Part shown: positions 9,288 to 52,530 of the stretch, piece after piece
How positions within the stretch are numbered: position 1 is the stretch's first letter
Layout of the letters: each line of letters opens with the position of its first letter
NCBI GenBank assembly: GCA_965228475.1
Contig: OZ245817.1
Span: forward strand, 2,496,001 to 2,560,000
Origin: Myxococcota bacterium
GTDB taxonomy: Bacteria > Myxococcota_A > UBA9160 > JAFDDA01
Length of the DNA stretch: 64,000 nucleotides
Reading direction: 5' to 3'
Translations under genes and position numbers: made by a program
Notes under the pieces: model-generated
What the model was told of the DNA's origin: nothing
What the model saw: only the letters and a program-made list of their open reading frames with translations
The model's database searches: none

Positions 9288-10028
9288 TCACTTCCGGCGG
9301 CTGGCGAGAAGCAGAAGGCCCGCGAAGCCCGTGGCCATGGCCAGCAGGCTGCCCGGCTCCGGTACCGGCAGGCTCACGTTCGTGAATGTGATCGTCGTGA
9401 AGATCGGGAACTGGTTGCCGAGGACTGAGACGAAGGTCGGCGAAACCAGCGTAAGCGGGCCCGAGGCGCCCGCTAACGTGACGATGTTCGTGCCCGAGTT
9501 CACCGCGCCGACTCCCGTGCTGAAGACGGCGGCGTCTATCGTGAAGGGCGAGGCCGTGGCACCCCCCTGACCGAGCTGAGCCGCGTTCAGATCGACCGGG
9601 ATCGGGACGATGACCGGAGTGAAGACGTTCACGAAGCCGTCGAGGCCCATGGCCCCACCGACACCGCCACCCGTGTTGCAGGCGATGCCCGGTGCGACGC
9701 CGCCACCGCACACTTCCCCTGGAGCATGGACCGTCACGCCACCGGCCGAGAACGTGCCAGCCTGGTTGCTGATGGTCATGGCGGCAATCGAGTTGATCGC
9801 CGTGGTGGAGGTTACGGGCACGACGACCGGAGCCGGCAGCGAAACGGTGCCAGCAGCAATCGACACGGTGCTACCGGACACCGAAACCGTTCCGACTTCC
9901 GAGAAGGAAATCGGGCTCAAGCCCTGAATCGTCAGCGTGAAGATGATGTTCGTCGCTACCGGCGCCGCCTGGACGACTCCGCTCACCAAGAGCGACCACG
10001 CGGCCACGATTCCGAAGAACCAACTCAC
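9288..10028 (-). CDS. PEP-CTERM sorting-domain surface protein (Gly/Thr/Val-rich)
   Basis: GTG 10028 after GGAGGAG; signal peptide ending VQA-AP; C-terminus VPEPGSLLAMATGFAGLLLLASRRK. Confidence 0.88.
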   Translation of the reverse strand: MSWFFGIVAAWSLLVSGVVQAAPVATNIIFTLTIQGLSPISFSEVGTVSVSGSTVSIAAGTVSLPAPVVVPVTSTTAINSIAAMTISNQAGTFSAGGVTVHAPGEVCGGGVAPGIACNTGGGVGGAMGLDGFVNVFTPVIVPIPVDLNAAQLGQGGATASPFTIDAAVFSTGVGAVNSGTNIVTLAGASGPLTLVSPTFVSVLGNQFPIFTTITFTNVSLPVPEPGSLLAMATGFAGLLLLASRRK

Positions 10029-42083: not shown

Positions 42084-43937
42084 ATGCGCGTGCCTCATCG
42101 ACCTCTGTTCATTGCTTTCGCTCTCGTTGCCATGCACTTTCAGATCGGTGTGGGCTGCGCAGAGCCGCTCACCATCAACGTGACCTCACCGAGCCACGGC
42201 GAGTTCTCGACCGCCAGCTCGATCACGATCACCGGGTCCGTGACGGGCGTGCAGCCGGCCAACGCCGCGCTGACCATCAACGGCTCGCCGGTGACGGTCG
42301 CCGGGAACTCGACCTTCTCCGCGAACGTCGCCCTCGATGGCAACATCGTGTTCAACCCGTTCCTGCTCGAACTCACGAACACCAACACGAACGTCACGAT
42401 CCGCGATCGGATCGTGGTGATCGCCGGTGAGTCGGTCGCGGACGGAGCCCTGTCCGAGGACAGCATCGCGCTGCGCCTGAACGACTCGGGCCTCGACTCC
42501 ATCGAAGGGGTCGTGAGCAGCCTGGTCAACTTCGACCTCGCCACGCTCCTCCCGGTCGGGACGGCGGTGATCAACGACTTCTGCGCGATCGACGGCGGCT
42601 TCCTCGGCTGCCTCGGCAGCGTGGACGTCGTGATCGCCAACCCGACGCCGAGCATCTCGGGCTTCTCGATCGACATCGACTCGCTGGTGAACGCCGCCGC
42701 GGGCGACGTCACGATCAACGACCTCGACGTCCGGGCGCAGATCAACGGCTCGGGCATCGCCCCGAGCTGCGGGCTCCGCCTCACCGCGAACTCGCTCGAC
42801 ATCCTCGGGGACTACACCCTCGAGCCCGACGCTCTTGGCGACGCGATCGACGTGAACCTCATCACGTCGCCGCCGGGCATCGTGTTCTCGGGCTTCAACA
42901 GCGAGTTCACGAGCGGCCTGTGCGACTTCCCGCTGATCGGCAGCCTGATTCAGCTGATCATCGGCGACGTCCAGCCGATCGTCGTGAACGGCCTCCGGGA
43001 CTTCCTGGACGATCCGGACGGGGCCGGCCCCGCGGACGCCCCGCTCGCGGAAGGCATCGAGACGGCTCTGGCCGAGATCTCGATCGCCGGCCCGATCGGC
43101 GAGGGCCTCGGCCTGAACCTCGAGGCGCCGCTGTTCGCCGTGGACGAGGACAACGCGGGCATCACCCTCGGGTCCGATGGCCGCATCACCTCGACGCCGT
43201 GCACCCCGCCGCCGAACGCGCCGGACCTGCTGGCTTCCCTGGCCGTGCCGGAGCCGTTCCCGAGCTTCGGGGCGCTCACGCCGGGCGGCCTGCCCTACGG
43301 CCTCGGCATCTGCGTCTCGACGGCGGCCTTCAACCAGCTGCTGAAGGCCGAGACCGAGTGCGGCCTGCTCCAGACCACGCTGACGGAGCTCGACCTCGAT
43401 GGGCCCGGCGGCAACCCGCCGCTGCCCATCACCGCAGCCGTCCTCGCGACGTTCATCCCCGAACTGGCCAACGCCGACCCGTCGACGCCCTTCGCGATCA
43501 ATCTGATCCCGACCCTGGCGCCGGCCCTGACCGGCAACCCGGGGCCTGCGGGTGAGATTGCCGAGCTCCGGCTTGGCGGTCTGGTCGTCGAGGTCGTCGA
43601 GACCATCGGAGGCCAGAAGATCATCGACGGTCAGGTCGACTTCCGCGCCGGCCTGGACTTCAGCTTCGACAGCCAGACCAGCGAGCTCGTGCCGACCATC
43701 GGCGCGGTGGGCGCCGGGGACATCAACGTCGACATCGTGAACAACACGGTGATGACGAACCCGACCCAGCTCGCCTTCATCCTGGAGATCCTGCTGCCGG
43801 GCCTGCTGCCCACCCTGGGCGACTCGCTCGGCTCGTTCCCGCTGCCGGAACTGCTGGGCCTCCAGATCCAGGGCGTGTCCGTCGAGCAGAACGGCGAGTT
43901 CGTCTCGCTCTTCGCCGACCTGGTCCCGACTCCCTAG
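42084..43937 (+). CDS. Large secreted (lipo)protein: N-terminal Ig-like domain + possible BPI/LBP-like long-beta domain
   Basis: Signal ending IGVG-C; ITITGSVTG..LTING Ig-like; ALRLNDSGLDSI and STAAFNQLL segments; paired Cys. Confidence 0.7.
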   Translation: MRVPHRPLFIAFALVAMHFQIGVGCAEPLTINVTSPSHGEFSTASSITITGSVTGVQPANAALTINGSPVTVAGNSTFSANVALDGNIVFNPFLLELTNTNTNVTIRDRIVVIAGESVADGALSEDSIALRLNDSGLDSIEGVVSSLVNFDLATLLPVGTAVINDFCAIDGGFLGCLGSVDVVIANPTPSISGFSIDIDSLVNAAAGDVTINDLDVRAQINGSGIAPSCGLRLTANSLDILGDYTLEPDALGDAIDVNLITSPPGIVFSGFNSEFTSGLCDFPLIGSLIQLIIGDVQPIVVNGLRDFLDDPDGAGPADAPLAEGIETALAEISIAGPIGEGLGLNLEAPLFAVDEDNAGITLGSDGRITSTPCTPPPNAPDLLASLAVPEPFPSFGALTPGGLPYGLGICVSTAAFNQLLKAETECGLLQTTLTELDLDGPGGNPPLPITAAVLATFIPELANADPSTPFAINLIPTLAPALTGNPGPAGEIAELRLGGLVVEVVETIGGQKIIDGQVDFRAGLDFSFDSQTSELVPTIGAVGAGDINVDIVNNTVMTNPTQLAFILEILLPGLLPTLGDSLGSFPLPELLGLQIQGVSVEQNGEFVSLFADLVPTP

Positions 43938-43959
43938 GGGCCCGCGTCTCCGAGCCTGC

Positions 43960-44008
43960 GCCCCCGTGACGGGACGATCCCAGATCGTCCTCGTCACGGG
44001 GGCTTTCT
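43960..44008 (+). terminator. Rho-independent terminator-like hairpin
   Basis: GCCCCCGTGACG-GGACGATC-cca-GATCGTCC-t-CGTCACGGGGGC followed by TTTCT. Confidence 0.7.
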
Positions 44009-44096
44009 CGTTCTGGCCCGGCGGTTTCTGGTAGGATCCCGGGTGGCGAAGGGGCCACCGCCGCGCGTCCGACCGGGCGCCGGCCGGAAACCGCCC

Positions 44097-47000
44097 ATGC
44101 GCCTCCTCCTGCCCCTCCTGCTGACCCTGTTCGCTCTTCCCGCCCCGGCCCCCGCGGCGCCCGATTCGGGCGAGCTCGTCTATCTGAACGAAGGCAACCG
44201 CCTGCGGCGCTTCGACGTCGACACGCTCGGCCAGCGGCTTCCCGCCCAGGACGTCCTCGTCCAGCGCGAGGGGCCCGAGGGCCCGGGCGGAGGTGACGCC
44301 GGCGCGACCCCGAACGGGAACGACATCAACGGGATGATCTGCCCGTTCCCGGACGGAAGCGGGCGCTTCGTCGCCGGTGAGGACACGCACCAGCCGACGC
44401 CGCCCGCAGGCTGGGGGATCTACGCGCCCGACGGCTCTCTGGTCGGCAAGATGACCCCCACCTATCCGACCGTCTCCCCCGAGACCTTCGGCTGCGGGTT
44501 CAACTCCGAGGGCCTCCTCTTCACGACCTCGACCGGCGACCCGGGCATCGGCTTCGGGAACGGGCAGCTGATCCTCTGGTTTCCGCCCTACGAGGGCTTC
44601 CCCGGCCCCCCGGGCGCCTACCCGGAGACGAACGCCCGGAGCGAGAACTTCTGCGTCCTCGCCAACGACATCGGCACCGCCACGGGCGTCGCGATCGACG
44701 ACGACGACAACGTCTACGTCGCTTCGGGCGGACTGCTCCGCGTCCTGCGCTTCGCGCCGCCCTTCCCGACCGGGCTCGGCCCGGGCGAAGGCTGCGAAGG
44801 CACCGACCCCCAGGGCTCCCCGATGGCCGACGCCGTGAACCGCTCCATCGCCGTCCAGGGAAACCTGGCCTCGCTCTACAGCACGTTCACGGGCCTCGCG
44901 ATGGCACCGAACGGGAACCTCTACGCAGCGAGCATCATCAACGGGACGATCGGCGAGTTCCGGCTCGACACGGGCGACCCCTCCCAGGCCTCGACCTTCG
45001 TCCGTCACATCCTGCTGCCCACGGACCCGCCCTTCCCGTTCGAGACCGGCACGCCCCAGGGCCTCGCGGTGGGGGGCGACGGCAGCGTCTACTACGCCGA
45101 CATCGACCTCGTCGGCACCTTCCCGAACCTCGGCCCGGGGCCGGACGGAAAGCTCCGCCGGATCCGCTTCGACGGGAGCGGTGACCCGCTCCCGCCCGAA
45201 ACGATCCGGGACGGACTCGCCTTCCCGGACGGCGTGGCGGTCCTCCCGGGGCATCTGCCCTCGAAGGAGTGGCGCAGCTACGCGGGCGGTCCGGAGCGGC
45301 TCTTCCACAACCCCGACGAGTTCATCCTCGGCGCGGCCCAGGCCGGCTCGCTCGTGCAGCGCTGGCGCTTCGAGACCGACGCCATCATCACCGCTTCGCC
45401 CATCGTGGCGCGCCTCGACGTTCCCGGAGAGGGCCCGCAGTCGATCGCGTTCATCCAATCCTGGGACGGGAACGTCTACGCCGTGCGCGTGAAGGACGGG
45501 ACCGAACTCTGGCGGTTCGCCACGGAGCCCCAGCCCGGGGCGAACTTCCCGAACACCGGCTCCGCCCACGTCGAGAACGTCGACGGGCGCGAAACGGTCT
45601 TCATCGCCAGCGGACACCTGGCCTACGCCCTCGATGCGATCACCGGCGAGGAGATCTGGCGGTTCACGGCCGGCACGGGCTGCCGTGACGAGAACGGCGT
45701 GCCGCCCGGTGCGTGCACGATCGGAGGGGAGCGCAACGAGATCGAGACCTCGGCCATCGTCGCGGACGGGAAGGTCTACTTCGGGATGGACGTGAACGAC
45801 ACCGTGGGCGGCAAGGGCGGCTTCTTCGCCCTCGAGACGACCACCGGGCACCTCGCCTGGTTCTTCGACCTCGAGTCCGGGAAGACCTGCCGGCCCTTCC
45901 CGGGCGATGAGATCGACCAGTTCGACGCCTACCACGACGCCGCCGATCTGAACCTCCCGGCGGACTTCTTCAGTACGCGGCCGGGCTGCGACTTCCCGCG
46001 CAGCCAGACCGGCTGCGGCAACGTCTGGGCGACGCCCTCCTACGACGCGGGCCGCGACACCCTCTACGTCGCGGCGAGCAACTGCGACACGCGCACCGGG
46101 CCGGGGGACGACCCGCGAAAGCCCGACCCGCCGATGCCCCCCTTCGACCTCTCGGTCTTCGCGATCACGGCGCAGGGGACCCCGACCTGGCGCTACCGCT
46201 CCTACGCCGTCGACAACGAGGACTTCGCCTTCGGCGCCTCGCCGAACCTGTTCTCGATCGACGTGCCGGGCCTCGGCTCCGTCGACGTGCTCGGCATCGG
46301 GCAGAAGGACGGCCACTACCGGGTGCTTCCGCGCGACGGCGTGAACCCGCTGAGCGGGATCGACTGCACCGTGCTCGACGCCAACGGCGTCCCGGGCTGC
46401 GTCGACACCAACCTCGGCGGAGCCCCGTCCGAGCCGGCCGACTTCCCCGAGTTCCCCTTCTGGGACACCCAGGTCGTCCCCGGCGGCCGCGCCGGGGGCG
46501 TGATCCTCACCGCCGCCGCCAATCCGGTGGACCGGCGCATCGTCTTCAGCACGGCGCCGGGCTTCGACCCGCTGGCCCCTCAACAGCCGACGCTTCACAT
46601 CCTCGACATGGACACGGGCGACGTCGTGTGGGACGCGAGCCAGCTGCCCGTCCAGGACTCGGTCACCGAGAGCGCGAGCTTCGCACCGACGAGCACGGTC
46701 CCGGGCCTCGCCTTCTTCGGGACGGTGCCCTTCGACCTGCTCCGGGTGATCGCGACGGAAGACGACGACCCGCAGGAGGTCTTCGTCTATCCGCTTTCGG
46801 GCTTCCCGATCTCCGGAGCGGCCTCGGGCGCCATCGTCGTGGACGGCACCGTGCTCGTCGGTCACGGCATCGGCGTCCGCGGGAACCCCCAGGACCAGGG
46901 GACCCTGACCTCGAACATCCCCTCGGCCCTCGTGGCGCTGTGCGCCCCCGGCACGCCGGGCTGCGCGCCCTGCAACGACGGCATCGACAACGACCTGGAC

Positions 47001-48152
47001 GGCCTCGTGGATGGCGACGACTCCGGCTGTACCGGCCCCGGGGATCTGAGCGAGCGCCCCGATTGCATGGACGGCCTCGACAACGACCACGACGGCCTCG
47101 ATGACTGGCCGAGCGACCCCGGCTGCCGGAACCGCCTGCCGCGCTCCGTCGAGAGCCCCGCCTGCGACGACGGCATCGACAACGACGGCGACGGCGGGAT
47201 CGACCGCGACCCGGCGACCGGCGACCCCGACCTCCAGTGCGAGGCCGCCTGGGACGAGAGCGAAGGCGAGAGCAGCGGCCCGAGCTGCGGGCTCCTGGGC
47301 ATCGAAGCGCTGGCCGCGCTCCTCTGGCTCCGCCGGCCGCGTGGACGGCGCCGCGCAAGCGCCCGGCTCGTCGCGGGCGCGACGCTCGGACTGCTTGCGG
47401 CCGGGCTGCCGGCCGGCCTGGCCGGAGCGGCCCCCATCCCCGTGAGCGTCGGCGTGACGCTCGGAGTCGAGTTCCCGGGCGCGACCCTCTTCACCGGCCC
47501 GGAACAGTTCGGCACCGTCACCGTCGATGCCACGGCCCGGACGGTGTCCCTGCCGGCGGGGGTCCTCTCGCTCTCGGGCACGGTCGCCGGCCAGGTCGGC
47601 TTCACGCTCCGAAACCCGGCGGGTACGTTCCGGCCGGGCGGTGCCTCGGCGGGCACGTGCCCCGGGCCGCTCGGCGGCCAGGGCGCCTGCATCCTCGGCG
47701 CCGCCGTCGGAGGCGGCTTCGGCGGGACGCTGCCGCTCTCGGGCACGGTCCGGATCCTGTCCGCGTCGGCGTCGCTCCCGGCGACGGCCATCGGCGCGGC
47801 GCGGACCGCCTCGGCCGCGGGGAACGTCCTCCAGGGAGCGCCCTTCACGACCCGGACCGCGGCGGTCACGACCACGGCCAACGGTTTCTGGACCACCGCC
47901 CGCGGCAACCTTCCGGCAGGCTGGCTCACCGCTGCCGGCAACCCATCGGCACCGCCGGTCCAGAGCCTTCTTCTCGTGAGCCCGGTCCACGTCCAGCTCG
48001 CCGGGAGTGCATCCCCCGTGCCCGTTTTCGTGACCCTGTCGATTCGTGCGATACCCGAACCCGCCGCTGGGGCACTCATGCTGTGCGGCTGGCTCGCGCT
48101 CATGGCTAGCCTCCGGTGGCCGATGCTATGGTCCGCCGTTCTGCGAAGATGA
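44097..48152 (+). CDS. 1351-aa surface protein: two beta-propeller regions (NHL/SMP-30-like, PQQ-like), acidic Cys repeats, internal Cys-TM-Arg sorting signal, then a fused signal peptide + PEP-CTERM module
   Basis: Signal peptide; ATGVAIDDDDNVYVA, PQGLAV; WRFET, GTELWRF, GEEIWRF; SCGLLGIEALAALLWLRRPRGRRR; LVAGATLGLLAAGLPAGLAGA-AP; IPEPAAGALMLCGWLALMASLR. Confidence 0.85.
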   Translation: MRLLLPLLLTLFALPAPAPAAPDSGELVYLNEGNRLRRFDVDTLGQRLPAQDVLVQREGPEGPGGGDAGATPNGNDINGMICPFPDGSGRFVAGEDTHQPTPPAGWGIYAPDGSLVGKMTPTYPTVSPETFGCGFNSEGLLFTTSTGDPGIGFGNGQLILWFPPYEGFPGPPGAYPETNARSENFCVLANDIGTATGVAIDDDDNVYVASGGLLRVLRFAPPFPTGLGPGEGCEGTDPQGSPMADAVNRSIAVQGNLASLYSTFTGLAMAPNGNLYAASIINGTIGEFRLDTGDPSQASTFVRHILLPTDPPFPFETGTPQGLAVGGDGSVYYADIDLVGTFPNLGPGPDGKLRRIRFDGSGDPLPPETIRDGLAFPDGVAVLPGHLPSKEWRSYAGGPERLFHNPDEFILGAAQAGSLVQRWRFETDAIITASPIVARLDVPGEGPQSIAFIQSWDGNVYAVRVKDGTELWRFATEPQPGANFPNTGSAHVENVDGRETVFIASGHLAYALDAITGEEIWRFTAGTGCRDENGVPPGACTIGGERNEIETSAIVADGKVYFGMDVNDTVGGKGGFFALETTTGHLAWFFDLESGKTCRPFPGDEIDQFDAYHDAADLNLPADFFSTRPGCDFPRSQTGCGNVWATPSYDAGRDTLYVAASNCDTRTGPGDDPRKPDPPMPPFDLSVFAITAQGTPTWRYRSYAVDNEDFAFGASPNLFSIDVPGLGSVDVLGIGQKDGHYRVLPRDGVNPLSGIDCTVLDANGVPGCVDTNLGGAPSEPADFPEFPFWDTQVVPGGRAGGVILTAAANPVDRRIVFSTAPGFDPLAPQQPTLHILDMDTGDVVWDASQLPVQDSVTESASFAPTSTVPGLAFFGTVPFDLLRVIATEDDDPQEVFVYPLSGFPISGAASGAIVVDGTVLVGHGIGVRGNPQDQGTLTSNIPSALVALCAPGTPGCAPCNDGIDNDLDGLVDGDDSGCTGPGDLSERPDCMDGLDNDHDGLDDWPSDPGCRNRLPRSVESPACDDGIDNDGDGGIDRDPATGDPDLQCEAAWDESEGESSGPSCGLLGIEALAALLWLRRPRGRRRASARLVAGATLGLLAAGLPAGLAGAAPIPVSVGVTLGVEFPGATLFTGPEQFGTVTVDATARTVSLPAGVLSLSGTVAGQVGFTLRNPAGTFRPGGASAGTCPGPLGGQGACILGAAVGGGFGGTLPLSGTVRILSASASLPATAIGAARTASAAGNVLQGAPFTTRTAAVTTTANGFWTTARGNLPAGWLTAAGNPSAPPVQSLLLVSPVHVQLAGSASPVPVFVTLSIRAIPEPAAGALMLCGWLALMASLRWPMLWSAVLRR
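46971..47210 (+). repeat. Three CxDGxDNDxDGxxD putative metal-binding repeats (coding)
   Basis: CNDGIDNDLDGLVD, CMDGLDNDHDGLDD, CDDGIDNDGDGGID. Confidence 0.85.
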
Positions 48153-48161
48153 GGGTCCGCG

Positions 48162-49985
48162 ATGAACATCCTGGGAATTTCCGCCTACTACCACGACAGT
48201 GCAGCCTGCCTGGTGCAGGACGGCCGCATCGTGGCAGCGGCCCAGGAGGAACGCTTCACCCGCAAGAAGCATGACGCGGAGTTCCCCGCCCATGCGATGC
48301 ACTACTGCCTCGAAGAAGCGGGGATCGGCGTCGAGGACCTCGACCTCGTCGCCTTCTACGACAAGCCGCTCCTGAAGTTCGAGCGCATCCTCGAGACCTA
48401 TCTTTCCTACACGCCGCGCGGCTTCAAGCTCTTCATGATGGGCTTGCCCGTCTGGCTGAAGCAGAAGCTCCATACCCCTCGCGAGCTCGACAAGGGCCTC
48501 GGGGGCAAGTACGACGGCCGCTACGTCTTTCTCGAGCACCACGAGTCCCACGCCGCGAGCGCTTTCTTCCCCTCCCCCTACGACGAGGCGGTCATCCTGA
48601 CCCTCGACGGCGTCGGCGAGTGGGACACGGGCAGCATCGCCGTCGGCCGCGGCAACAAGATCGAGATGCTCGAGGAGCTGAAGTTCCCCCACTCCCTCGG
48701 CCTGCTCTACTCCGCCTTCACCTACTTCACCGGCTTCCGGGTGAACAGCGGCGAGTACAAGCTCATGGGCCTGGCGCCCTACGGCGAGCCGATCTACGCC
48801 GACCGCATCCGGGACAACTGCCTCGACATGAAGGAGGACGGCTCCTTCCGCATGAACATGGACTACTTCGCCTACACGCGGAAAGACGTCATGACGTCGG
48901 AGAAGATGGACTCTCTCTTCGACGGCCCGCCGCGGACGGCCGAGACCGAGATCACCCAGCGCGAAATGGACATCGCGGCTTCGATCCAGGTCGTGACCGA
49001 AGAGATCATGCTGCGCATCGCGCGGCACGCCCACCGCAAGACGGGGATCGACAACCTCGTGATGGCCGGTGGCGTGGCGCTCAACTGCGTCGGCAACGGG
49101 AAGATCCTGCGCGAAGGCCCGTTCAAGAATCTCTGGATCCAGCCGGCCGCGGGCGACGCCGGCGGCGCGCTCGGCGCGGCCCTCTTCACCTGGCACCAGC
49201 TGCTCGACAACCCCCGCGACAACGGGGGCAAGGACTCCCAGACCGGATCCCTCCTCGGCCCCCAGGCCAAGGAAGCCGACATCCGCTCCTTCCTCGATTC
49301 GGCGGGCGCCGTCTACCAGCACTACGACGAGGAAGAGAAGCTCTGCGACGCCGTGGCCGAGCTCATCGCCACCGAGAACGTCGTCGGGCACATGGGCGGA
49401 CGCATGGAGTTCGGACCCCGCGCCCTCGGGAGCCGCTCCATCCTCGGCGATCCGCGCTCGCCGAAGATGCAGTCGGTGATGAACCTGAAGATCAAGTTCC
49501 GCGAGTCCTTCCGGCCCTTCGCTCCGGCCGTCCTCCAGGAGGACGTCCACGAGTGGTTCGACATGAAGCCCGGCCAGGAGAGCCCCTACATGCTCCTCGT
49601 CGCCCCGGTCCGCGAGGACAAGTGCAAGCCCGTCGACGACAGCAAGAGCGGGCTCGACAAGCTCAAGCAGGAGCGCTCGGTGCTGCCCGCGATCACCCAC
49701 GTCGACTACTCCGCGCGCGTGCAGACCGTCGACCCGGAACGCTACCCGCGCTTCTACGGCATCCTCAGCCGCTTCAAGGCCAAGACGGGCTGCGGCGTGA
49801 TGATCAACACCAGCTTCAACGTCCGCGGCGAGCCGATCGTCTGCACCCCGGCGGACGCCTACCGCTGCTTCATGGGCACCAACATGGACGCCCTGGTGAT
49901 CGAGAACTTCGTCCTGCGCAAAGAAGACCAGCCGGACGCCGACGTCGACCGCGAGGCCTACCTCGCGAAGTTCGACCTGGACTAG
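48162..49985 (+). CDS. Carbamoyltransferase (NodU/CmcH family)
   Basis: ILGISAYYHDSAA, QEERFTR, EHHESHA, DGVGE, GEYKLMGLAPYG, GGVALNC, EFGPRALGSRS, RESFRPFAP, NTSFN. Confidence 0.95.
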   Translation: MNILGISAYYHDSAACLVQDGRIVAAAQEERFTRKKHDAEFPAHAMHYCLEEAGIGVEDLDLVAFYDKPLLKFERILETYLSYTPRGFKLFMMGLPVWLKQKLHTPRELDKGLGGKYDGRYVFLEHHESHAASAFFPSPYDEAVILTLDGVGEWDTGSIAVGRGNKIEMLEELKFPHSLGLLYSAFTYFTGFRVNSGEYKLMGLAPYGEPIYADRIRDNCLDMKEDGSFRMNMDYFAYTRKDVMTSEKMDSLFDGPPRTAETEITQREMDIAASIQVVTEEIMLRIARHAHRKTGIDNLVMAGGVALNCVGNGKILREGPFKNLWIQPAAGDAGGALGAALFTWHQLLDNPRDNGGKDSQTGSLLGPQAKEADIRSFLDSAGAVYQHYDEEEKLCDAVAELIATENVVGHMGGRMEFGPRALGSRSILGDPRSPKMQSVMNLKIKFRESFRPFAPAVLQEDVHEWFDMKPGQESPYMLLVAPVREDKCKPVDDSKSGLDKLKQERSVLPAITHVDYSARVQTVDPERYPRFYGILSRFKAKTGCGVMINTSFNVRGEPIVCTPADAYRCFMGTNMDALVIENFVLRKEDQPDADVDREAYLAKFDLD

Positions 49986-49988
49986 CCG

Positions 49989-50435
49989 ATGGCGAAGATG
50001 GTCGAAATCGATTGGAACCCGGATCCGGGAACCCTGCGCCAGTTCGGCTGGGTGGCTCTCGTGGGCTTCTCGCTGATCGCCCTTCTGGCGCACCAGGAGT
50101 GGCTGATCTTCGCTTTCGGCCTCGGCGATGCGCGAATGAAGGTGGTCGTGGGCCTGCTCGCCGTCGGCGCCCTCGCCGCCCTGATCGGCCTCGTCTACCC
50201 GAAGGCCAACAAGCCCCTCTTCATCGGCCTGACGCTCCTGGCCTTCCCGATCGGGTTCGTACTCTCGTACGTCATCATGATCACCCTGTTCTTCGTGATC
50301 ATCGCGCCGATCGGGATCCTCATGCGCCTCGCCGGACGGGATCCGATGGAGCGTGAGATCGACCCGAACGCCGAGAGCTATTGGACGCCGGCCAAACCCG
50401 CGCCGCCCAACAGCCGCTACTTCCGCCAGTTCTAG
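49989..50435 (+). CDS. SxtJ-family membrane protein
   Basis: LRQFG, PIGFVLS, PIGILMRLAGRDPM, SYW, YFRQF; follows the carbamoyltransferase. Confidence 0.85.
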   Translation: MAKMVEIDWNPDPGTLRQFGWVALVGFSLIALLAHQEWLIFAFGLGDARMKVVVGLLAVGALAALIGLVYPKANKPLFIGLTLLAFPIGFVLSYVIMITLFFVIIAPIGILMRLAGRDPMEREIDPNAESYWTPAKPAPPNSRYFRQF

Positions 50436-50476
50436 GGCACCACGCCCTCCCCAAACTTCCACTCCGGGAGCCCGAC

Positions 50477-50674
50477 ATGTCCGATCAAGACGCGAAAGAC
50501 TTCATCGCCGAAGCCAAGGAAGAGCGCAGCGGGCTCGTTGGCGAGTTCACCGACTTCCTGCGAGAGAACAAGAAGTGGTGGCTCGCGCCCATCATCGTCT
50601 CGATCCTGGCCCTGGGGGCTCTCGTGCTCCTCGGCGGGACGGCCGCGGCGCCCTTCATCTACACGCTCTTCTAG
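50477..50674 (+). CDS. SxtK/DUF5989-family small membrane protein
   Basis: FLRENKKWWLAP..AAPFIYTLF; GGGAG RBS. Confidence 0.9.
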   Translation: MSDQDAKDFIAEAKEERSGLVGEFTDFLRENKKWWLAPIIVSILALGALVLLGGTAAAPFIYTLF

Positions 50675-50779: not shown

Positions 50780-51427
50780 CTAGCGAGCTTCGTCCGGGAA
50801 GCAGGCGTCGCGCTGGTGCCGGTAGGCGGCGATCAGCCAGTCGCGCGTCTTTTCCCGGGCCACGGAGAGCTTGCCCGGCATGACGGGGCCCCCCGCGATC
50901 AGCAGCGTCAGCGGACGCGTGGCGTCGAGCACGAGTTCGGGAGCCCGCTTGAGCTGGGCCAGGCTCGGGTGCCGGACCGGCTCGCCTCCGAAGACGAACA
51001 GGTAGCTCGCGACGGCTCGGCGGCCGTTCGCGCGGTCGATGATGGTCTGGATCGGGAGCGTCTTGCCGTCGACCTCGACGTGTTCGACCTCCCGCTGCCC
51101 GGCCTCGAACTGCCCGAGCAGGATGCCCGGCGGACGCGTGTAGAGCCGGATCGCATCGAAGGAGCGCACCAGCGCTCCGCGCAGCTCGACGCCCCGCTCG
51201 CCGATGTCGATCTCCGCCTGGGTCCACTGGGGCACGTCCTCGTCGTACCTCTCGAGGCGTTCGGAAAAGGTCCGGGTGAACGGCAGGCCCTTGATCTCGA
51301 GCGCCCGCTCGGGGTCCTGGCAGTCATCGTGGCGGCGCACCTCGAAGCGTGCGACCGCCAGCGGCGCGAGCAGCACCCCGACCGCCACGAGAAGCCACGG
51401 CGCGTGGCGGCCCGACAGATGGATCAT
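50780..51427 (-). CDS. Exosortase-associated EpsI-like protein
   Basis: Single N-terminal TM; SYLFVFGGEPV; ATGA-coupled to the exosortase. Confidence 0.7.
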   Translation of the reverse strand: MIHLSGRHAPWLLVAVGVLLAPLAVARFEVRRHDDCQDPERALEIKGLPFTRTFSERLERYDEDVPQWTQAEIDIGERGVELRGALVRSFDAIRLYTRPPGILLGQFEAGQREVEHVEVDGKTLPIQTIIDRANGRRAVASYLFVFGGEPVRHPSLAQLKRAPELVLDATRPLTLLIAGGPVMPGKLSVAREKTRDWLIAAYRHQRDACFPDEAR

Positions 51428-52530
51428 GCCAGGGCTTCGCGCAGGTTGTCGCGGTCCGACACCATGAACAGGACGAGCAGCACGAGCCAGAACGTCGCGA
51501 CGCCCGAGGCACCGTGGAACGCGGTGTCGAGCAGGTCCGAACCGAACCAGTGCGCCGCGACGACCAGCAGGAAGACCCGCAGCGTGTTGCAGAGCAGCGC
51601 CAGCGGCCACGCCGCCACCAGCAGCGCCAGGCGGCGCCAGTTCGAGCGCGCATAGCGAGCGAGGATCAAGGAGAGCCCGACCGCGGCGTAGAGGGTCGAG
51701 AAGCCGCTACAGGCGTCGGCGACCAGGAAGGTCTCCTTCGGCAGGACCAGGAGCGTGTCCTCGCGAAGCACGGGGATCCCCACGAACCGGATCATGGGCT
51801 CGACGAGCTGCGCCGTCCAGCTGCGCAGGAACAGGTGCGCGCCCATCATGTTCGGGATCGGGATCATGAACACGCCGAGCAGGAGCGGCATCGCGAGCAT
51901 CCGCGTTCGACGGATGCCGAGCAGCAGCAGCGAGAGCCCGGGCAGCAGAAAGACGAAGCCGACCGCAGCCAGGTACGCGGTCCGCAGCGCGAAGTCCGCC
52001 GAGGCCGCCAGCAGCGCGGGTACGACCAGCGCCAGGCCCCAGAGTGACCCCTCGGGCCGCTCGGGATGCGGATCTGCGCGCAGCGCGTTGGCCGCGAGGT
52101 AGGCCATCAGAAAGGGCATGAAGAGCCCGTGCCCGTTCTCCCAGATGTTCCCGGTCCACTTGTCGTAGAGGAAGACGAAGGTCGGCGCGAAGAAGACGAC
52201 CAGCAGCACCAGGGCCAACCAGACCATCGGCGAAATCGAGCGGGCTGGGACGCCGAAGATCGGTGCGTCCGCGGGCGTCTCCTCGACCGGGTCCCACCAC
52301 AGGCGCCACGCCGCCACGCCGATCGCCGTTCCCACGCCGGCGATCAGTTTCACCACGAGCTCCTGGGGCACGAAGGGACTGACGGCGATGGTCACGCCGG
52401 CGACGGCGGCGAGCACGAGAGTCCGGAGCGGTTCCTGGCGCAGCAAGGGACTCCCTGGGATGAAGGGCTCGGGCCGGGGACATCGGGAAACGCCGCCACG
52501 GCCCGACCCGGCCGCGCGGAGCTCGCGCAC
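51424..52530 (-). CDS. Exosortase (EpsH family); start uncertain
   Basis: Multi-TM; HGLFMP, FMIPIP, catalytic VADACSG, CNTLR, FHG. Confidence 0.9.
   Translation of the reverse strand: MRELRAAGSGRGGVSRCPRPEPFIPGSPLLRQEPLRTLVLAAVAGVTIAVSPFVPQELVVKLIAGVGTAIGVAAWRLWWDPVEETPADAPIFGVPARSISPMVWLALVLLVVFFAPTFVFLYDKWTGNIWENGHGLFMPFLMAYLAANALRADPHPERPEGSLWGLALVVPALLAASADFALRTAYLAAVGFVFLLPGLSLLLLGIRRTRMLAMPLLLGVFMIPIPNMMGAHLFLRSWTAQLVEPMIRFVGIPVLREDTLLVLPKETFLVADACSGFSTLYAAVGLSLILARYARSNWRRLALLVAAWPLALLCNTLRVFLLVVAAHWFGSDLLDTAFHGASGVATFWLVLLVLFMVSDRDNLREALA

Follow-up and report, generated by a model that had tools for sequence, protein, structure and literature searches.

A conserved in-frame fusion in a Myxococcota genome places a Cys-type sorting tag and a second signal peptide inside one surface protein that may be cut in two

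Our analysis of a 64,000-nucleotide stretch of a Myxococcota bacterium genome (contig OZ245817.1, positions 2,496,001 to 2,560,000; hereafter the window) centres on one plus-strand gene, at 44097-48152, in which a sorting tag built of a Cys motif, a transmembrane helix (TM) and an Arg cluster runs without a stop codon into a second signal peptide and a second surface-protein module with a PEP-CTERM-type tail (Table 1). The sequence evidence suggests that this gene is an old in-frame fusion of neighbouring surface-protein genes in which both sets of signals have been kept, and that the one chain it encodes is likely cleaved to give two proteins, each with its own anchor, a reading to which we give a probability of roughly 0.6. 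The host genome is a single contig of 5.0 Mb with 70% G+C and is 96% complete.

The open reading frame (ORF) has 1351 codons and, in the translation of the window, is free of stops up to its end; along it lie a signal peptide, two beta-propellers, acidic repeats, the Cys/TM/Arg tag, signal peptide 2, an all-beta domain and a PEP-type tail. The junction at 47286-47444 reads CGLLGIEALAALLWL-RRPRGRRRASAR-LVAGATLGLLAAGLPAGLAGA-APIPV and is followed by about 207 residues and an IPEP-helix-LRR end; C1064-GLLGIEALAALLWL takes up 47286-47330, RRPRGRRRASAR 47331-47366 and LVAGATLGLLAAGLPAGLAGA 47367-47429, with APIPV from 47430. We call the parts before and after the junction module 1 and module 2. An earlier account of this DNA made without database searches, the sequence-only reading, had held that the frame runs through the tag into the second signal and that no in-frame ATG, GTG or TTG precedes that signal, and both statements are borne out: codons 1056-1111 contain none of the three, and only the near-cognates CTG, ATC and ACG occur there, none with a clear Shine-Dalgarno sequence. 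It had also taken AGA-AP for a signal peptidase I-like site, which is supported by a basic n-region, a weak h-region and an Ala-x-Ala matching the predicted mature start of free-standing paralogs. The Arg cluster is placed in the cytoplasm on the basis of the positive-inside rule.

The join is present beyond this one assembly. Assembly runs X1 and X2, either of which may be the source sample of the genome itself, are identical to the window over 46500-48500, and a contig of X3 matches up to 47363. Strain X4, from another study, is represented by one low-depth contig over 47163-48500 with 44 substitutions; inside the ORF 28 of 35 of the differences listed are synonymous, and those listed for module 2 comprise 19 synonymous and 4 non-synonymous changes. 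The indel or stop that would mark a faulty junction was looked for in these assemblies; X1 and X2 have none, and the single gap in X4, at 48159, lies outside the ORF. A full-length variant from another assembly (P0125) differs by 4 residues, and fused orthologs with the same two modules include P0126, P0127 (76%), P0057 (51%), P0244 and the cluster mates P0321-P0323. Among the best 120 homologs of module 1, 5 have an internal tag, 23 end in the tag and the remainder have other tails; the five are P0125, P0126, P0127 and P0057, with the same module 2, and P0228, with another PEP-CTERM module. A recent fusion, which the sequence-only reading had offered as its alternative, is ruled out for this gene, since orthologs at 76% and 51% identity hold the same two modules.

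How such a fusion may have formed is indicated by the 24 of the 193 genomes of the order in which the C-terminal half of module 1 was matched. In four of these (G055, G088, G171, G126) it is fused to a different second PEP-CTERM module, in G109 a fusion of module 1 with a different PEP-CTERM module is broken by a frameshift, and in G017 and G061 the same two parts are separate neighbours, 14 bases and a ribosome site separating the stop from the ATG in the former, and a stop, three bases and an in-frame ATG following one another in the latter. G088 is an intermediate, having lost the stop and retained the spacer and original Met, and G055 is a tight fusion. Judged from these sequences, the split, read-through and tight forms are the series expected if a stop is lost and the sequence is then trimmed back to the point where the Arg tail also serves as an n-region. 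Among relatives, fused orthologs of this pair exist; the split neighbours pair module 1 with another PEP-CTERM partner, and a split module 1 adjoining this exact module 2 family was not found in the 24 genomes, at two of whose loci the sequence ends or breaks before the tail. In a tree of 122 module 1 sequences (P0251 was too short to include) fusions with an internal tag fall in three places, which together with an unfused sister of the window protein, P0128, indicates that fusion and fission, or repeated fusion, both occur.

Similar junctions join other partners. A junction profile run against 1.84 billion representatives gave 77 matches; P0125 aside, 14 of them are true internal junctions, 10 of these not among the seeds, and they join subtilases, phosphoesterases, beta-helix, cytochrome c and pentapeptide modules; in G005 a subtilase is fused ahead of the module 2 family of the window. 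In L045/L067 (G158) and L333 (G109) the junction is present and a later frameshift breaks the frame. The host genome holds four further fusions of a PEP-CTERM, a signal peptide and a second PEP-CTERM among 74 pattern matches (one more internal match was false). Further tag-TM-Arg-signal-peptide junctions thus occur in relatives, with varied partners, and in the host, and the predicted cassette of tag and signal peptide is portable. Two false pattern matches (P0297, P0198), two false Cys-tag matches and one false PEP match in the genome were left out of the counts. In the fusions L049/P0245, P0252, P0256 and P0319 both halves are Cys-tag-ended.

The tag itself is otherwise terminal. A six-frame pattern scan of the host genome gave 24 filtered matches, of which 22 are true C-G-x-(x)-G-x-E/helix/Arg tags; 21 of the 22 sit 22-37 residues before a stop, and the single internal one is that of ORF 44097-48152. 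Unbiased pattern scans of public genomes and metagenomes returned 229 matches, 34 of them tag-like (some duplicates) and none of the 34 internal. Since 21 of 22 host carriers are terminal and none of the 34 tag-like matches is internal, the Cys tag is, as predicted from these patterns, a C-terminal signal of the lineage. Its terminal carriers in the host are large secreted proteins (for example C1:963838, 511440 and 4105379) with the signature C-G-(L/F/V)-(L)-G-x-E; CGL-G-E is unchanged in all six aligned orthologs. The tag is common in the order. A match to the junction profile, most of whose matches are terminal tags, occurs in 124 of the 193 genomes and in none of three in family f9.

The sequence-only reading had called the tag MYXO-CTERM-like, and this does not stand, although the tripartite build of invariant Cys, helix and Arg cluster is present as in MYXO-CTERM. 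TIGR03901 (MYXO-CTERM, cut-off 20) does not match the internal tag at E<=10, and none of its 24 matches in the genome falls at a Cys-tag site. The JDVT-, Synerg-, CGP- and GlyGly-CTERM models stay below cut-off for the tag fragments and five terminal-tag proteins scanned, one of the five showing traces (GlyGly 10.4 against 15.5, Synerg 9 against 22.5). The myxosortase core model (Mrt_core, NF040914) reaches at best 27.1 bits in the host, against a cut-off of 100. On the failure of TIGR03901 and of the core model the MYXO-CTERM label is rejected, and by architecture the predicted tag is of Cys type and outside every modelled family examined. The host genome encodes six generic CPBP proteases; none adjoins a terminal-tag gene among the neighbourhoods listed, and the six Mrt_core matches that score highest within the order indicate no single shared ortholog in the host genome.

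Module 2 belongs to an unnamed family of secreted proteins. The kinship of the second half to the gene at 9288-10028, claimed earlier, is real (phmmer E 7e-6), that gene being distant and on the minus strand. The host has seven free-standing full-length paralogs, that gene among them, each with its own start, a signal peptide ending x-x-Ala before Ala-Pro and a PEP-type tail, all with clear ribosome sites and ATG or GTG, and relatives have more free-standing members. A truncated copy at C1:3282864-3283145 (+), a signal peptide and about 40 residues, lies directly before two full paralogs. In an alignment of five fused and four free members the Ala at -1 and the Pro at +2 are invariant in 9 of 9 rows, which places the internal site in register with the predicted mature start of the free proteins. 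A structure model of module 2, built from 8 sequences, is all-beta (pLDDT 73); Foldseek returned nothing at E<=0.001 and ESM Atlas no usable match, and the best match from VIA (Z 7.4, YceI-like and small barrels) is within the range of unrelated matches.

At the end of module 2 the IPEP-helix-LRR build of a PEP-CTERM is present, with IPEP conserved 4/4 in three orthologs, so that the second tag called in the sequence-only reading stands by build and not by score: the tail is degenerate and is unmatched above cut-off by TIGR02595 and PF07589, which do accept ortholog P0057 (TIGR02595 19.8 against a cut-off of 16) and paralog P0002. At 48120-48149, as in P0126 and P0127 (the three closest fused orthologs), the PEP helix is followed by a W-P-M-L extension and not immediately by a basic cluster. 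The exosortase reported near the gene is indeed at 51424-52530 (-) and by its family likely processes PEP-CTERM tails. The host genome has two exosortases above cut-off, the second adjoining a PEP-CTERM gene, and 54 PEP-CTERM model matches, together with three signal peptidase I matches and GspD, a type II secretin.

Conservation at the second signal is position-specific. Among three aligned orthologs with a module 2 that is 35-66% identical to that of the window protein, Ala is kept at -3 and -1 in 3/3 and the residue at -2 in 0/3, with 2 of 5 positions identical from -8 to -4; C-G-L-x-G-x-E is retained in all fused orthologs while helix 1 diverges. By an automatic rule, Ala-x-Ala follows helix 2 in 20 of 23 junctions as against 22 of 75 control hairpins, which are helix-Arg-helix-soluble-domain proteins of the host genome (Fisher p 1.2e-6). 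Several points weigh against our reading. The 23 junctions are related and do not count independently, and a profile favouring Ala at the site was the source of about half of them. The rule missed the window protein and P0003, where it picked a strand of the mature domain, although the alignment shows the site in both. Inheritance from an ancestral signal peptide alone could give some Ala-x-Ala excess. Helix 2 of the window protein is Gly/Ala-rich and only mildly hydrophobic and does not reach a hydropathy of 1.9, a threshold passed by helix 1 and the other signals, and the final PEP-CTERM is under the model cut-offs. Mrt_core is above cut-off in only 1 of the 193 genomes. Finally, P0128, the nearest database relative in the module 1 tree, is unfused, so the fusion is dispensable. 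The one Mrt_core match above cut-off, L354 (G094:C14), has no matched counterpart in the host and was possibly acquired or misbinned.

If our reading is right, Sec would export module 1 behind signal peptide 1, helix 1 would halt transfer with the Arg cluster remaining in the cytoplasm, and helix 2 would re-initiate export, bringing module 2 into the periplasm. Signal peptidase I would quite probably cut at AGA|AP, and exosortase would then act on the PEP tail of the 20 kDa module 2. With somewhat less assurance, we expect that the enzyme serving the 21 terminal Cys tags would lipidate and/or cut at Cys1064, leaving a 109 kDa module 1 and releasing a helical hairpin of 47 residues. Such fusions would arise easily, because one lost stop makes the Arg tail a ready n-region, and would persist because processing restores both original products. 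The sequence-only reading had proposed one translation giving two anchored proteins in equal amounts through signal peptidase and two sorting enzymes. Its polyprotein part is favoured by the old, conserved junction, the in-register Ala-x-Ala and the many partners; no myxosortase in the host genome reaches cut-off, and 1:1 output as a selected feature is not supported, since module 1 can have either of two different partners or no partner, or form a split pair. Given such variable partners and the split forms, the more economical view is of a fusion that is tolerated and corrects itself, not of a device under selection for 1:1 output.

The best surviving alternative, which we regard as unlikely, is that signal peptidase I alone cuts, so that module 2 is released and sorted by exosortase while the Cys tag goes unprocessed and module 1 (about 114 kDa) is held in the inner membrane by a two-helix hairpin. 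The searches with myxosortase models, which found no cognate Cys-tag enzyme in the host and the 193 genomes, are consistent with this, and intramembrane proteases may reject a tag with a second helix behind it. It leaves unexplained why C-G-L-x-G-x-E has been held in every fused ortholog as helix 1 diverged, and internal tags are processed in Haloferax (PMC6098224) and proposed to be so in MXAN_5598 (PMC11980579).

Quite unlikely, in our estimate, is that the junction stays uncut and the product is a tethered membrane protein, two extracytoplasmic domains on a hairpin with a PEP tail, whose signals are tolerated relics. The weak hydrophobicity of helix 2 and the degenerate final tail would fit this, and Ala-x-Ala is frequent in an Ala-rich proteome (486 of 2107 non-first helices). 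Against this stands the position-specific conservation of Ala at -3 and -1 across orthologs with so divergent a module 2, and the same site pattern recurs with unrelated partners; the split forms moreover show each half working as a separately exported protein.

We consider it improbable that translation of module 2 mostly begins at an in-frame start of its own within helix 1, such as the CTG at 47310, with the long product a by-product. In-frame CTG codons do lie at aa 1067 and 1072, and a linker Met or GTG is retained in some relatives (G088, G008, P0253, G005, G063). The start-free codons described above, none with a clear Shine-Dalgarno sequence, speak against it, as does the absence of a sigma-70-like promoter, which was sought in 43800-48400, and all free paralogs have clear ribosome sites with ATG or GTG; a stop-free frame would in any case yield the fusion, which must be handled. 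An assembly error or a very recent stop loss without biological meaning, for which one could cite the single long contig, the possibility that X1 and X2 come from the source sample of the genome, and the frameshifted homologs in other assemblies (G109, G158), has next to no chance of being correct, being ruled out by the frame of the diverged X4, with no indel in the ORF, and by fused orthologs down to 51% from different sources.

Internal sorting tags are already in print. In Myxococcus xanthus a gene fusion leaves a MYXO-CTERM internal in MXAN_5598, and processing of the N-terminal part has been proposed (Guo, Haft, Wall 2025, PMC11980579). That protein shares with ours a Cys/TM/Arg sorting tag brought mid-protein by gene fusion; it differs in carrying a MYXO-CTERM, the enzyme for which, MrtX, is known, and an outer-membrane barrel as its second part, the passage on it mentioning no second signal peptide, whereas the tag of the window protein fails TIGR03901, no MrtX-type enzyme was found in the host, and the second part bears a PEP-CTERM. 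An ArtA substrate of Haloferax volcanii, likewise a natural fusion with a tripartite tag, here a central PGF tag, mid-protein, is experimentally cut (Abdul Halim 2017, as given in the review PMC6098224). As far as that review describes it, the Haloferax case is strain-specific and Tat-exported, and its downstream part is a NifU domain for which no second export signal is mentioned; the fusion in the window is conserved, and both halves are predicted to be exported. MYXO-, JDVT-, Synerg- and CGP-CTERM are Cys-containing C-terminal signals handled by myxosortases of the CPBP family (Haft, 10.1101/2023.06.07.544157). The likeness lies in the invariant Cys, helix, Arg cluster and many C-terminal carriers per genome, and the difference in the motif C-G-(L/F/V/I)-(L)-G-x-E, NCBIfam CTERM models below cut-off and a cognate protease that was not found.

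Like other exosortase substrates, module 2 and its paralogs bear (V/I)PEP-helix-basic at the C-terminus, but this one begins inside another protein and its tail is under cut-off. The NCBIfam family NF033207, 'midcut-by-XrtH protein', was compared by name alone, which implies an exosortase cut mid-protein, and its match to the junction is a trace (E 0.51, 10.4 bits, cut-off 45). In Bradyrhizobium japonicum FbcH, cytochrome b and c1 come from one precursor through an internal signal peptide, in a respiratory complex and with no known sorting tags. In a search that left most subscription journals outside, no paper was found on tag-signal-peptide polyproteins with PEP-CTERM, on this Cys tag, or under midcut-by-XrtH terms. 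New here are a junction that mixes two sorting systems, a Cys tag for which there is neither a model nor a known enzyme, and a complete series from split to fused forms.

Sorting tags are by definition C-terminal and signal peptides N-terminal, so annotation tools take such a gene for a single protein and overlook the second product; orthologs are labelled BamB in the sources. If the protein is cut as predicted, bacterial secretory polyproteins would be commoner than assumed, and a cassette of tag, Arg cluster and signal peptide would offer a natural way to export two proteins together from a single gene. The fusion also lends itself to use as a reporter, whose long C-terminal half would make cleavage of the Cys tag visible and so offer a route to the enzyme of the tag; the same trick reportedly first proved archaeosortase activity. 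More speculatively, and here we would sooner bet against than for, the order may both use an undescribed sixth Cys-type sorting system, with C-G-L-(L)-G-x-E as its tag, some 20 substrates in each genome and a processing enzyme that is not one of the modelled myxosortases, and routinely chain tag-Arg-signal-peptide cassettes into virus-style secretory polyproteins; the chain here would bridge two sorting systems, and three membrane proteases would cut it to give a lipid-anchored PQQ-propeller enzyme and an exosortase-anchored partner.

Table 1. Features of the fused gene, and related genes in the window and elsewhere in the host genome.
Feature	Position	Strand	Basis
Signal peptide 1, aa 1-20, MRLLLPLLLTLFALPAPAPA	44097..44156	+	Hydropathy peak; predicted cut before A21 from Ala-x-Ala rule
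Module 1, first all-beta propeller-like domain, aa 21-385	44157..45251	+	Weak NHL / ScyE-family matches
Module 1, PQQ-dehydrogenase-type beta-propeller, aa 386-950	45252..46946	+	PF01011 E 1e-14, PF13360
Three acidic double-disulfide repeats (stalk)	46959..47246	+	NF033662, 3 stretches, 38.2 bits against cut-off 41; starts aa 959, 990, 1023
Internal Cys tag and helix 1, CGLLGIEALAALLWL	47286..47330	+	Identical tag type closes 21 other host proteins
Arg cluster RRPRGRRRASAR	47331..47366	+	Putative cytoplasmic loop common to tag 1 and signal peptide 2
Internal signal peptide 2, ending A-G-A	47367..47429	+	Aligns with signal peptides of free paralogs; predicted signal peptidase I cut before A1112
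Module 2, Gly/Ala/Thr-rich all-beta domain, unnamed secreted family	47430..48050	+	Paralogs; model pLDDT 73
Degenerate PEP-CTERM tail (IPEP, hydrophobic helix, LRR) and stop	48051..48152	+	Weak matches, best E 0.003
Free-standing module 2 paralog, own signal peptide and canonical PEP-CTERM	9288..10028	-	BLASTP 33% over 101 aa, E 5e-4; phmmer E 7e-6
Exosortase, one of two in genome	51424..52530	-	PF09721 E 2e-50; TIGR02602 above cut-off
Further ORFs, internal PEP-CTERM into second signal peptide and PEP-CTERM protein	Host genome (G000) C1: 1533312, 3337527, 4197822, 1690879	+, +, -, -	

In an AlphaFold2 model of module 1 (pLDDT 88.5) the first domain is all-beta, and this domain also exists as a stand-alone protein in relatives (L013-L016). 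The top Foldseek matches of the second propeller are PQQ alcohol and methanol dehydrogenases (E 1.5e-20, 14-19% identity), so that, as modelled, the second half of module 1 folds like PQQ alcohol dehydrogenases; an enzyme role is putative. Module 1 scores far under the TIGR03075 and TIGR03074 cut-offs, and the host genome encodes pqqC.

Around the fused gene, a 617-aa secreted protein with an Ig-like start and a weak C-terminal LBP/BPI/CETP match (E 0.013) is encoded just upstream at 42084-43937 (+). Nine bases past the stop, 48162-50674 (+) encodes a carbamoyltransferase, an SxtJ-family membrane protein and a small membrane protein, a common gene trio. An unannotated ORF with no family match, at 50780-51610 (-), overlaps the end of the exosortase gene, a position that suggests an exosortase-associated protein.

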